Positions 13,394-59,302 are shown, counted from the first letter of the stretch. The stretch is DNA of 64,000 nucleotides from a virus (IMGVR_UViG_3300025679_000005); one strand, 5' to 3'. The notes: generated by a model not told the origin, from the sequence alone. Numbers and translations are program-made.

Positions 13394-13765
13394 TCATGGG
13401 ATTTCCTCTGTCGAGCTGAGGCGTTCCCACGAGGTGGGCACGACCTCGGCGGTAGTCCGGGGGATGTTCCCCAGAGCCCAATCACAAGCCACGCCAAGCA
13501 CTACCATTACTGAAAAGTAGCTGATTTTATGTTCTTCGAGGACGCTCATCACAGCCTTTTTGACCGCATTGACGTTGGTGTCTCCACCAACGGACTCGAC
13601 CAGGAAGCATACGCCCTCCCCCAAAGTGCCGTTGGTCTCGATCGTAAGCAGGCCGTCATTAGCCATGACCACTGGAGATACCCTGTAACCTTTGTGGACC
13701 ATACTCGCAATAATGGCGTCCGCAAAGGCAGAGGTGAGAATGGTGATGACGACGGTACAGACCAT
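13394..13765 (-). CDS. paralog family P1 protein with WERL tag
   Basis: Similar to 13770-14135 and 15931-16341; ends PTSWERLSSTEEIP. Confidence 0.75.
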   Translation of the reverse strand: MVCTVVITILTSAFADAIIASMVHKGYRVSPVVMANDGLLTIETNGTLGEGVCFLVESVGGDTNVNAVKKAVMSVLEEHKISYFSVMVVLGVACDWALGNIPRTTAEVVPTSWERLSSTEEIP

Positions 13766-13769
13766 GACC

Positions 13770-14135
13770 CTATTCCGACTGAGCTAGGCGTTGCCAAGCG
13801 GTGGGTCTGTCCCCTGTTTGGTCGACTACATGGCTCCCACAATGCCAGACACAATCCTTGTCGTCTAGGGACTCACAGACAAGTATCGAGTAGTATACCG
13901 TATGTAATTCCTGTAGTAACCCTCGAAGCTCCTCAGAAACAGCTTCTATGTCTAACTCTTCGTCGCCGTTGTCCATATGAACTGCTAGCGTTGCGCCTAC
14001 TCGGCCCTCCTCTACTTCAACGGCTCGATTGCTTATTGAGATAGGGGATACCGTCCAACCCGTGTTTAGGAATGCGGCGAGGAGGGCATCCGATTGCTGG
14101 GTGGACGGCAGAGTGATTAGTACGAAGTATCTCAC
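13770..14135 (-). CDS. paralog family P1 protein with WQRL tag
   Basis: Ends DRPTAWQRLAQSE. Confidence 0.75.
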   Translation of the reverse strand: MRYFVLITLPSTQQSDALLAAFLNTGWTVSPISISNRAVEVEEGRVGATLAVHMDNGDEELDIEAVSEELRGLLQELHTVYYSILVCESLDDKDCVWHCGSHVVDQTGDRPTAWQRLAQSE

Positions 14136-14392
14136 GGAACGTTCTCGAAGGCCTCATTGACCATGGCCGCGTGGCGCTCGTCCTTGAGCGCTTGCTTGGC
14201 GTTCTCTCGGACCTTGGCCTGCTCAGCGACGATAGCATCAAATTCAGCCATCTCATCCTGAGCCTTCGTCCAAGCCTCTTGGGCAGCCTCCCAACGCTTC
14301 AACGTGTCCGCTGGGACATCGTACGAACCCTTTGGATCTACGGAGAAGTTGTAGTCGTAGGCAGTGTCTCGGTCCAGTTTGATCTTGGGCAT
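14132..14392 (-). CDS. hypothetical helical protein
   Basis: GGTGTAGGAT motif before the ATG. Confidence 0.65.
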   Translation of the reverse strand: MPKIKLDRDTAYDYNFSVDPKGSYDVPADTLKRWEAAQEAWTKAQDEMAEFDAIVAEQAKVRENAKQALKDERHAAMVNEAFENVP

Positions 14393-14434
14393 GGCCCGAT
14401 CCTACACCGGTTCGCTAGGCTCCAGCTTCTCCTC

Positions 14435-14495
14435 GTCTCAGCGTACTGAGCAATCGAGAGCCTCACTCTACACCGTCTCAGCGTACTGAGCAATC
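14435..14495 (-). CRISPR. two-handle mini-array of 21-nt CasPhi repeat handles, 19-nt spacer
   Basis: gtctcagcgtactgagcaatc at 14435-14455 and 14475-14495. Confidence 0.88.
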
Positions 14496-14533
14496 AGCAA
14501 TCACCCATAGTACACCGATAATTTATCTCTTGG

Positions 14534-56246: not shown

Positions 56247-56860
56247 AATTCGAAATAGGCCAGAAGGTGTTCACTGATTACAGCCTCAACCGAAGAGGCC
56301 CCGCCACTCTAGTCCCACGCTACGTGATCAAGGTCGTCTACCGCAGCCTCAACGTCCTGGGAGGCGGCAGATCTAAGGTGGTCCGAACGATCGAGATCGG
56401 CGTCCTATACGAAATGTCAACCCTCGATTGGGACACGTTCCCCGACCTAACCACCTGGTGGGCCTCATTGAAACTGGGCGAACTCGACCAAAGATTCGAG
56501 AAGGCCTTCGGAAGCAGATCATGACCACTACAACCGTTCAGTACAACAGCTCCGGCTCGTTCATTGAAGTCGTCGGCCACAAGTTCTTCCACCGTGACTT
56601 GATCCCAGGCTACTAGGTCGAAGTCGACTGGTGGCAAGGCCTAGACCGATGCTTCTACGCCAACATCGAGGCGCCTGGGGATACCTGGAGCGGCGTCGTC
56701 TGCGTTGATGTGAAGGCCTCAGACGGGTGAGTGACCAAGTGGCCTAGCCCCTGACATCATGGGTGGCCTTGTTCACGAGTCATTGACTAGGCCACCCATT
56801 GTCACGTGATACTCCACGATCCGCGACCTGCGACCTTCCTGACCGGTGTAGATCCTGGCT

Positions 56861-57409
56861 ATGCAGATCCCGAAGTCAGTCAGTGTTGTGCTCCCCAAGA
56901 CCTTAGAGGACCTCTTACGTGGAGCCAAGACAAAGGATGGCAGGGCCTCCCTGTCCAAGCTTCTAGGTGAGGCAGCCGTTCGTGGATTCATGGAGATGGG
57001 AATCGAGCCAATGGCTGACCCAGACGCTCCAAAGAAGGCGCCCCTGGACGATCTCACCCAGAAGATGGGCGATGCCCTATTAGCGGCCAAGCCCGAGGCC
57101 CTGGCAAAAATACAGGCTGAGACCGAAGCCGCTATTGTAGTGGCCAGAGAGTCCAAGCTGCCTCCAGGCTACAAAGCAACGAATCATGGCGTAAACCCTG
57201 AGGTGAGGACCGAGGTCAAGGAACCGTTACTAACGACCAGAAAAGTGACTGTAGGTCAAGGAACCGTTACTAAAGACCAGAAAAGTGACTGTAGAGACCA
57301 GATCCTCGAAGAAGGGCCGCTCTTCACTGAGGAGCCGGAGGATGACGACCCAATGGCTTCCCTGTTCCGTGACGCCGAAAAAGCCGATTTCGGGCTGGAA
57401 GACGACTGA
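56861..57409 (+). CDS. hypothetical protein (possible ribbon-helix-helix N-terminus) with 40-bp tandem duplication
   Basis: SVSVVLPKTLEDLL..ASLSKLLGEAAVRG; repeat units 57213-57252 and 57253-57292. Confidence 0.6.
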   Translation: MQIPKSVSVVLPKTLEDLLRGAKTKDGRASLSKLLGEAAVRGFMEMGIEPMADPDAPKKAPLDDLTQKMGDALLAAKPEALAKIQAETEAAIVVARESKLPPGYKATNHGVNPEVRTEVKEPLLTTRKVTVGQGTVTKDQKSDCRDQILEEGPLFTEEPEDDDPMASLFRDAEKADFGLEDD

Positions 57410-57490
57410 AATCGGACTAGAATGCAGGGGTAAGCAGGACATGTAAACGCCGTGCAATCTCGTGCGGAGCCACAGTGATCCTGCTTACTC

Positions 57491-58669
57491 CTAGACTAAC
57501 GGATCGTCTAGTCGCTCGATCCAACTAGGCCATGAACTAGGAGGCCGCTTCTCCTCAGCCTGTGCTACCCAGGCAACAGGCTCAGTCCCCGGGACTGTAG
57601 CCACTGCCAAAGTCACGTTTACGTTGACATTGTCAGCGACAATGGATTCAAAACCCGGCTCGTGGTTCAAGATCGCCAGGACCAAAGCCCGCTGTATCGG
57701 CGGAATCGCTAGGCGGGCCAGGTACTCGACGACAATCGCTGACCTGAAAGGAACCTGAGGGAACAGCCCACCCAGAGTATGGTCAGGTTCTGGCTCGGGA
57801 GCCGCCTCAGCTTGAGGAGGCGGAATATACTCAATGAGTTCAGCATCATAGGCGGATCCTTGGGCAAGGACCACTTGGCCGCCATCCACTTGGTCTAGGT
57901 AGAGCGCCTGCCTAGCAAGGAGCGTCATTCCCGTGTCCGTCTGGGGAGTGACCTCAGCGTAGCCCATTTCAAGGTACTGCTGAACACGCCTCACGGGAAC
58001 GTCGTGGAGTCTCCCATTGGCGAGAATACGCACGGCATTGACTCCAGGCCGGACAGCCATCATCGCCCCCAAACTAGTGGTTACTGGGACCGTCCGATTC
58101 GCTGGGAACTGAGGATCGTCAATGGCCGGAGTCGGAGTCACCCAGTAATCCCTGCCCGCACGAATGGAACACCTGGCGTAGATGGCGGTGGTTGTAACGT
58201 TCATGTCAAAATCAAGAGTAGCCCGTAGGCAAACCCTGGAGGTAGCTCCATGGCCGTTGTCTACCCGCTCATGGGTAATAACTCGAAGGGCTCCGCCGTC
58301 AATGGCCTGCTCAAGGACAGCACGGACAACATGGAAAATAGCAGGGGTTTCTATCCGAAAGAGCGCACCCTCAGGCAATGCCAATGTCAGCTCAGGAACG
58401 TAGACGTAGGCTCGGAGCCAGAAAACCCCCCGGGCAGGGAATACATGCTCTCGCCCCATAACATCCACCAAGCGGGTATCGAAAGACCCCACTTGGCAGT
58501 AAATGTCAGAATCTGACCTGAATCCGGTCCTGAACCCGAAGTTGAGTCCGGGAGCAGCCTCCAACGCCGATCGAGCGATGTAGCCGATGTTGTTAGTGAC
58601 AGGGGTAATGTTAGACGTAAGCACCAGTAGGTGAGTGTAGGTACTCGAAGTTGCGAGTTCGTAAGGCAT
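57491..58669 (-). CDS. LSPxQ-domain / tag family protein
   Basis: IPPIQRALVLAIL..PSWIERLDDPLV. Confidence 0.8.
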   Translation of the reverse strand: MPYELATSSTYTHLLVLTSNITPVTNNIGYIARSALEAAPGLNFGFRTGFRSDSDIYCQVGSFDTRLVDVMGREHVFPARGVFWLRAYVYVPELTLALPEGALFRIETPAIFHVVRAVLEQAIDGGALRVITHERVDNGHGATSRVCLRATLDFDMNVTTTAIYARCSIRAGRDYWVTPTPAIDDPQFPANRTVPVTTSLGAMMAVRPGVNAVRILANGRLHDVPVRRVQQYLEMGYAEVTPQTDTGMTLLARQALYLDQVDGGQVVLAQGSAYDAELIEYIPPPQAEAAPEPEPDHTLGGLFPQVPFRSAIVVEYLARLAIPPIQRALVLAILNHEPGFESIVADNVNVNVTLAVATVPGTEPVAWVAQAEEKRPPSSWPSWIERLDDPLV

Positions 58670-58672
58670 GAC

Positions 58673-59302
58673 CTAAACCAGTGGATCCCCTAGACGTTCA
58701 CCCCAACTGAGCCCGATCGCCTCTGATTCTTCGGGAATAATCACCTTGGCCTTGAACCCGGACCCATCGGGGACCACCTCAAGGCAGATGGGCGATCCCA
58801 AAATCTTCGAGTTTATCAGCAATGACTGAAGCTGAATGGCCCCGCCCATGTACAGAGCCAAGGCATTCCCGAGTTCGTGTTGCCGCCTAGGGCTCTCTAG
58901 GTCTGCCCCGATAACGTCAGCCGCAACTGGATATGCCCAATAGATCTCGCCACTGAGCAAACGAACGATACTGAGCAAACGAACGGTCCTCGTTGAAGAG
59001 GCAACGGTCAGGGACACCCCAGAAACCACCCGCAATTGCAGTAGCGCAGGGTCAACATTCATCCGCTCCAATTCCCCACGTCGTTGAGCTTGCTCAACTT
59101 CGGATCGGTACACGTAGTGGCTCTCCGTACCATCACCACCTAGACGAATCCGAAGAAGCTGTGGAGGATCAGGGACAGTACGAGCGGAACCAAAAGGTGG
59201 ATCGTCCAATCGCTCAGACACTATCCGGAAGTGTGTGTAGTCATCCGCCGAAGGAATGTACGGCCTAGGCACCCTCAAGCTCCTTAGCCAATGCCAAGGC
59301 AA
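58673..59302 (-). CDS. tag family protein
   Basis: Ends LSWGERLGDPLV; 18-bp tandem duplication. Confidence 0.75.
   Translation of the reverse strand: MPWHWLRSLRVPRPYIPSADDYTHFRIVSERLDDPPFGSARTVPDPPQLLRIRLGGDGTESHYVYRSEVEQAQRRGELERMNVDPALLQLRVVSGVSLTVASSTRTVRLLSIVRLLSGEIYWAYPVAADVIGADLESPRRQHELGNALALYMGGAIQLQSLLINSKILGSPICLEVVPDGSGFKAKVIIPEESEAIGLSWGERLGDPLV

Follow-up and report, generated by a model that had tools for sequence, protein, structure and literature searches.

A short peptide recurs at the C-termini of eleven open reading frames (ORFs) scattered over positions 13,394 to 59,302 of a 64,000-nucleotide stretch of viral DNA (IMGVR_UViG_3300025679_000005; hereafter the window), which is itself part of a 464,302-bp metagenomic contig (ENA ERZ27294387 k141_731965, window base 1 being record base 223,773). 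The tails of these ORFs, named here by their lower coordinate, follow the consensus [PRK]-[ST]-x-[WY]-[ED]-[RVI]-L-x-[DE]-(P)-hydrophobic, and the comparison of the window with related phages supports the view that this tag is a selected, modular peptide signal placed on unrelated protein bodies. As to its role, we lean with moderate confidence towards a short helix on a flexible linker that would dock many accessory proteins onto one cytoplasmic partner.

Translation of the ORFs reproduced exactly all eleven C-termini quoted in the preliminary description of this DNA and bore out its statement that the carriers range from 56 to 392 amino acids (aa) and occupy both strands, ten lying on the minus strand and one (38198-39058) on the plus strand (Table 1). 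The 114 genes (18,158 aa) called over the whole window from codon usage contain six matches to the pattern W[EQ]RL and seven to the longer [EDQ][RIV]L.{1,2}[DE].L[VL], all of them within the last 16 residues (binomial P of 1e-6 and 1e-7, respectively). Since both patterns were chosen post hoc, after the data had been seen, an independent matrix of 10 columns was built solely from 21-22 tails of other phages. Its top six places in the called proteome, and its top seven among all six-frame ORFs of at least 25 aa, are carrier C-termini. At a threshold of 12 bits or more it gives 6 matches against 0.3 in shuffles, an enrichment at C-termini that holds over the background of shuffled controls. The best match is carrier 15931 (23 bits), followed by 13770 (19-21 bits) and 13394 (16 bits); carrier 45255 scores 9-13 bits, and the four looser tails (44090, 46320, 57491 and 58673), in which the Trp is displaced or missing, stay below 10 bits. 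The codons vary from tag to tag, and the likeness therefore lies at the level of the peptide and is not that of a DNA repeat. Searches of Pfam and PHROGs with all carriers gave no significant match, and a word-based protein search with the tail region alone returned the query itself as the sole match. Full-text literature searches found no description of such a tag, in line with the earlier suggestion that it is undescribed.

Relatives of the window extend the picture. None were found in phage and plasmid collections by megablast, nor among IMG/VR contigs by an exact 45-mer, two carrier proteins or a degenerate tag pattern, and a JGI contig of 83.7 kb proved identical to the window contig. It was through members of the small protein family of carriers 13394, 13770 and 15931 with tails of the WERL type that two related huge phages bearing CasPhi were reached. 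The first (L003/L004, contigs of 188 and 360 kb) is syntenic with the window at 5.8-21 kb, at 35-74% identity; its small-family member P0009 bears the tag, as does an unrelated protein of 92 aa. The second, a JGI contig of 63.6 kb (Ga0642625_01578) that has a CasPhi-like gene, bears the tag on 7 of about 83 genes, which encode three paralogs of 206-224 aa, a small-family member, a 44-aa protein and two others of about 87 aa; between these carriers and those of the window, homology is confined to the small family. Overall, tagged genes make up about 8-10% of the genes in the stretches read. The tags of the relatives end in PII, PLL, SFI or PWV and have no bias towards TAG stops. In the single orthologue pair available, large carrier 36133 and P0002, identity is 57% overall, with 80% in the tag, 94% in a subterminal helix and 53% in the body and in the linker alike.

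In its anatomy the tag resembles a short linear motif, being less than about 12 residues long, placed in a flexible region outside the fold and present on non-homologous proteins. The AlphaFold2 (AF2) model of carrier 13394 (predicted local distance difference test score, pLDDT, of 78) has a beta-alpha-beta unit twice over in a ferredoxin/ACT-like domain of residues 1-99, whose fold matches are generic ACT/PII/S6-like proteins only. In its tail (residues 100-123, pLDDT 46-61) a short helix is predicted only at 112-117, exactly over S-W-E-R-L-S. For 36133, an alignment of seven rows gave an unusable model (pLDDT 38) that places a helix over W-E-R-L-L-D. Both AF2 models thus predict a short helix at the W-E-R-L core, and in the confident model this helix stands apart from the fold; for 57491 the ESM Atlas model is poor. 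Across 28 tails the aromatic residue stands 7-23 residues from the C-terminus (median 10), after linkers that are flexible, often Pro-rich and varied in length, and in almost all tails a Ser or Thr is kept two or three residues before it. From the order of these residues we infer that P-[ST]-x-W-[ED] forms a helix N-cap with a capping box and that D-P acts as a helix stop. The pattern [WFY]-x-x-[LIV] with acidic flanks, that of Atg8-family ligands (the LC3-interacting region or Atg8-interacting motif, LIR/AIM), also fits most tails, but it is a very short pattern, and three tails have Gly or Ile at the aromatic position.

The core need not stand at the very end of the protein. In 38198, 13394, P0133 and the L009 paralogs it is followed by 5-18 further, often acidic, residues, from which it follows that a free carboxylate is not part of the signal; this tolerance of extensions fits binding of the helix in a groove. 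The same observation bears on the idea that the tag is a degron or adaptor tail through which early proteins would be handed to a host or phage protease for timed removal. Such a role would suit the C-terminal position, the two-part shape (a helix core, then [DE]-P-hydrophobic) and the hydrophobic last residue of 7 of the 11 tails in the window, and a membrane protein could carry such a tail as well. The nearest known likeness is ssrA with its adaptor SspB, also a C-terminal peptide with one half for the adaptor and one for the machine. However, ssrA needs a free hydrophobic C-terminus and is added during translation, whereas the tag is encoded in the gene and several tails end in Glu or Pro. 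Where there are extensions the motif does not stand at the very C-terminus, and C-terminal degrons of the kinds that ClpX, Tsp or PDZ domains recognise are not known to tolerate them. No protease gene was seen in the loci read, and a degron appears rather improbable.

One carrier is an integral membrane protein. The N-terminal transmembrane (TM) helix of 35617 (Kyte-Doolittle 2.64 over 19 residues) has a positive C-terminal flank, and by the positive-inside rule its tag would face the cytoplasm. Together with the tolerated extensions, this carrier speaks against both capsid cargo and a carboxylate-dependent degron as the general meaning of the tag. The earlier proposal was of a sorting or docking signal, with capsid loading and ejection, import into a phage compartment and a degron or adaptor site as examples; what the analysis supports is the modular signal on unrelated bodies and none of the functions named. 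Virion binding nonetheless deserves weighing, in which the tag would attach to the interior of the procapsid or to another part of the virion, so that varied proteins are packaged and ejected with the DNA. The logic would be that of T4, in which a diverse set of internal anti-defence proteins has only a targeting sequence in common and reaches a common destination (PMC3012670). As with the T4 capsid targeting sequence (IPI-III, Alt), a short peptide is the sole common feature of diverse, fast-evolving accessory proteins; the carriers are arranged in tandem arrays with function unassigned, and a 2256-aa tail-fibre-like protein, itself ending in PTNWVRDL, has two tagged genes immediately upstream of it on its own strand. 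Yet the T4 sequence is N-terminal, is cut by the prohead protease and occurs on a handful of proteins, whereas the tag is C-terminal, is separated from the body by no evident protease site, extends to a membrane protein and marks a share of the genes that is large for cargo. The encapsulin cargo-loading peptide comes closer in position, being a C-terminal peptide on a flexible linker, as the tag is, that docks unrelated cargo into a pocket of an HK97-fold shell protein. Its consensus, of a Gly-Ser-Leu type, differs from that of the tag, and it is found on few cargo genes beside the shell gene. The Pfam and PHROG matches of the window genes scanned (part of the window) and the Pfam lists of the fetched loci include no shell-like family. 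On balance we regard virion cargo or attachment as unlikely.

The small ferredoxin/ACT-like family (window 13394-16341; P0004-P0153) gives a view of how such tails change. It belongs to no Pfam or PHROG family, has a conserved W..GN[IV] strand and gave no match in a sequence search of the PDB. When the three small paralogs were combined into a profile and 1.84 billion representative proteins were searched with it, at least 229 representative relatives came up at E <= 1e-3. On the same domain and linker, four types of tail occur: WERL-like; ..K.[LVMI]N-COOH, in about 50 of 146 small-family tails; GPYR; and [HY]L[KR]LVK. They follow Pro-rich linkers after the W..GN[IV] strand, and some combine types. 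Tail type clusters on the domain tree, with 22 changes against 43.7 in shuffles on a weakly resolved tree. The presence of four lineage-following tails on one domain and linker means that the tail is a swappable module.

Two further C-terminal likenesses were seen. Orthologues at 12517-13116 of the window (minus strand) and L003:10886-11677 both end in WSTPTWES-stop, which looks like a truncated tag with only its first half, P-T-W-E. At L008:7583-9463 and L013:16183-18549, three or four neighbouring proteins share a C-terminus made of a Gly/Ser-rich run and S-[SGD]-D-W-stop; they adjoin LemA and TPM-phosphatase genes on these two unrelated large-phage contigs.

The genes beside the small family differ among lineages. 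In the CasPhi-phage clade (window 11737-14392, L003:9733-12549, L009:10001-12078) they are a protein of 86-92 aa and an AAA_33 P-loop kinase; at L008:3-1899 and L013:8960-11033, an aminotransferase and DUF3228; and in a T4-like contig (L006:8387-11261), an S51 peptidase and an R2K ATP-grasp ligase. The kinase, conserved in three related phages, invites the thought that the tag is a modification site, its near-invariant Ser or Thr being phosphorylated, glycosylated or otherwise modified, or that it recruits a ubiquitin-like ligation system. Against this, the substrates of AAA_33 kinases are usually small molecules or nucleic acids, and [ST]-x-x-[ED] is explained equally well as a helix capping box. 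The modification reading also draws on the ligase and the peptidase adjoining the family in the one T4-like contig, R2K enzymes being predicted protein-peptide ligases with targets unknown (PMC4431377). A role in modification seems quite improbable.

In the docking reading that we prefer, a Pro/Ser/Thr helix cap (the [ST]-x-x-[ED] capping box) would start an amphipathic helix of one and a half turns with Trp or Tyr and Leu on one face, and an acidic residue, in many tails a Pro as well, and then one or two hydrophobic residues would complete the motif. The tag would thereby plug mostly small, fast-evolving accessory proteins into a common partner in the cytoplasm of the infected cell, and this partner, a phage-encoded or host hub, would bind it in a groove. 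Known hub-binding tails (the sliding-clamp peptide QL[SD]LF; T4 gp43, gp33 and gp55 on gp45; SSB DDDIPF; the FtsZ peptide) are likewise short acidic-hydrophobic peptides on flexible linkers that occupy a groove on one hub, the clamp serving many clients through one pocket. Their consensus does not match, and the carriers of the tag have no DNA-enzyme domains in the Pfam and PHROG scans. Set beside the sliding-clamp motif in particular (QL[SD]LF / QLxLxL or T4-type LDFLF), the tag has no Gln-Leu start and a [WY]-[ED]-R-L core. Shared targeting peptides are hence known in principle, and from each of these the tag departs in its position, its consensus, its scale or its carriers. As for its origin, it likely began as the private tail of a small ferredoxin-like phage protein, old and widespread, and then spread to many genes in this clade.

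Several points count against the docking reading, the first being the number of independent carriers. The preliminary description had spoken of about eleven carriers, mostly without mutual similarity. The tagged ORFs are indeed eleven, and the N-terminal bodies of the large carriers have no detectable similarity (BLAST E > 0.01; hhalign probability <=8%, the same as for unrelated controls), but 13394, 13770 and 15931 are paralogs of 24-28% identity (24%, E 4e-8, for 13770 against 13394). Moreover, 36133, 38198, 45255 and 57491 share a subterminal element, [LI][SP][SP]xQxx[LV][IV]xx[IV][LV] (LSPxQxxLIxxVL), which lies 49-76 residues from the end and is confined to these four within the window (0.03 expected); 44090 and 58673 align weakly at it, so that four to six large carriers share the element. 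Counting also the membrane protein and the doubtful 56-aa ORF, possibly a remnant, at 46320, the tag sits in the window on about four independent body types and not on eleven. Conservation among these four to six carriers extends beyond the tag, and part of the sharing is common descent. All six large carriers (36133, 38198, 44090, 45255, 57491 and 58673) also start with Met-Pro, compared with 15 of the 114 genes overall, and contain repeated G-[DEQ]-x-[FY]-x-hydrophobic strands.

A second point concerns the DNA. A recurrent gene-start motif, YYGGTGTAG(G/A)ATC, stands mostly 15-19 nt before an ATG, and its GGTGTAG part has 22 copies in the window against 7.9 expected; it is probably an extended -10-like promoter of leaderless or very short-leader mRNAs, or a translation-start element. 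It is found, for example, 18 nt upstream of the ATG of carrier 38198, and at several genes it overlaps the end of the gene upstream and dictates endings such as L-V-stop. The L-V-stop codons of tags (YTG GTN TAG) form the motif of the next gene exactly at 36133 and 44090 and with one mismatch at 46320 and 58673, so that in four tags the motif takes in the final two residues together with the stop and inflates the likeness there. This overlap accounts for the excess of TAG stops in carriers (7/11 against 26/103 other genes) and for the arrangement of TAG, 3 nt and ATG, in frame, at the three junctions between tagged genes (36133/36129, 46320/46316 and 58673/58669). Amber read-through at these junctions would fuse both proteins; gating of the tag by such read-through was considered and rejected, as TAG is common at tight junctions in general (10 of 15), is explained by the gene-start motif and is unbiased in the relatives.

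Both points feed the view that the tag has no common function and stems from common descent of a C-terminal cassette in a paralog family combined with the overlap of the gene-start motif, the three small and the four to six large carriers being two groups that have more sequence in common than the tag. The motif does not explain the W-E-R-L core, which falls outside it. The tag is also present on a membrane protein, on the small family and on non-homologous bodies in relatives, which have other endings and no TAG bias, and a matrix made from other phages recovers it here. For the core, an origin of this kind is already largely refuted, and as an account of the whole we hold it to be very improbable. 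The remaining objections to the docking reading touch its scope and its partner. Genes within 10 kb do not share the tail of the small family in L006, L008, L012 and L013, which represent four other lineages of T4-like or other large-phage context, and the proteome-wide tag is therefore a feature of the clade and not of the family. No receptor was found, and docking is suggested by the shape and distribution of the motif.

Table 1. Tag carriers and other features of the window (positions in window coordinates).
Feature	Position	Strand	Tag position	Remarks
Small carrier 1, 123 aa	13394..13765	-	13397-13438	Ferredoxin/ACT-like domain, linker, tag PTSWERLSSTEEIP
Small carrier 2, 121 aa	13770..14135	-	13773-13805	Tag PTAWQRLAQSE; paralog of carrier 1
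Small carrier 3, ~127-136 aa	15931..16341	-	15934-15969	Tag PTAWQRLENPEL; paralog
Membrane-anchored carrier, 170 aa	35617..36129	-	35620-35652	Tag PFWERLDKWDL; TM helix at residues 6-24, basic flank after it
Large carrier, 288 aa	36133..36999	-	36136-36174	Subterminal helix LSSEQMELIEAVL, linker, tag PSTWERLLDEPLV
Large carrier, 286 aa	38198..39058	+	39005-39055	Helix LSPNQAFVIKQVL, tag PTAWERLSDPLL, then five residues PEEGE
Large carrier, 337 aa	44090..45103	-	44093-44128	Looser tag RSKWDVLGDFLV
Large carrier, 353 aa	45255..46316	-	45258-45296	Helix LSPLQRALIRTIV, tag RSRYEILGDEPLL
ORF of 56 aa	46320..46490	-		Two tandem tag copies (CERLENPPIV and GDRLQEPLV); weak coding score, 3.3
Large carrier, 392 aa	57491..58669	-	57494-57541	Helix IPPIQRALVLAIL, tag PSSWPSWIERLDDPLV
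Carrier, 209 aa	58673..59302	-	58676-58711	Tag LSWGERLGDPLV
Gene-start motif, examples	starts 13132, 14408, 21982, 38180, 56845			22 copies in the window
Small ORF, ~54 aa	43917-44081	-		ATG 16 nt after a perfect motif at the end of carrier 44090; absent from the 114-gene call
Tail-fibre-like protein, 2256 aa	27263-34033	-		Collagen-like GPPGPPGP runs, duplicated beta-helix-like segments, Gly-rich C-terminal part
DUF6197 paralogs (n=4)	34543-35013, 40757-41095, 43445-43852, 59265-59591	- (all)		Conserved CxC, FND, His

Besides the carriers, the genes of the window include a CasPhi/TnpB-like nuclease, a Xer-like integrase, a DDE transposase, glycosyltransferases and four DUF6197 paralogs. The 2256-aa protein is, judging by its repeats, probably a tail fibre; its C-terminal end resembles the tag, and glycosyltransferase and pyruvyl-transferase genes come after it. 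A role as a repeat scaffold for the tags was rejected on account of its tail-fibre look (GPP runs, beta-helix-like repeats and a Gly-rich end). None of the DUF6197 paralogs is more than 2.5 kb away from a cluster of large carriers, and as DUF6197 is common in actinophages, an actinobacterial host may be hinted at. A PDB sequence search with DUF6197 gave no match, and the family was set aside as a partner of the tag, the link being weak: it is widespread in tagless actinophages, and the 40 kb that were read of one tagged relative do not contain it. The Xer-like integrase (window 6185-7024, minus strand; L003:16406-17245; L009:16497-17333) has 60-72% identity among the three phages and ends in FLRLVK or YLKLV, the pattern of the [HY]L[KR]LVK tails that small-family members of other lineages carry; this ending may be due to chance or be part of the recombinase fold.

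In huge phages, function is unassigned for hundreds of genes, and a shared label that sorts about a tenth of the genes into one functional set would be of considerable use in making sense of them. The tag peptide, employed as bait, would give a direct experimental handle on its receptor. Should this prove to be the capsid, the tagged proteins would be the injected arsenal of the phage; should it prove to be a phage hub, this would be the first phage example of a motif-based recruitment network at the scale of eukaryotic hubs. More tentatively, and at a level that we consider possible and rather less probable than docking itself, the CasPhi huge-phage clade may practise client recruitment across its proteome, with one receptor reading a C-terminal mini-helix and the tail of an ancient small protein copied onto dozens of fast-evolving genes, a membrane anchor included. 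Were this true, new accessory proteins could be joined to one place by the addition of about 12 codons each. Finally, the four lineage-specific tails found on one small domain family suggest that tails of this kind form a layer of organisation that is general among large phages and has been overlooked.

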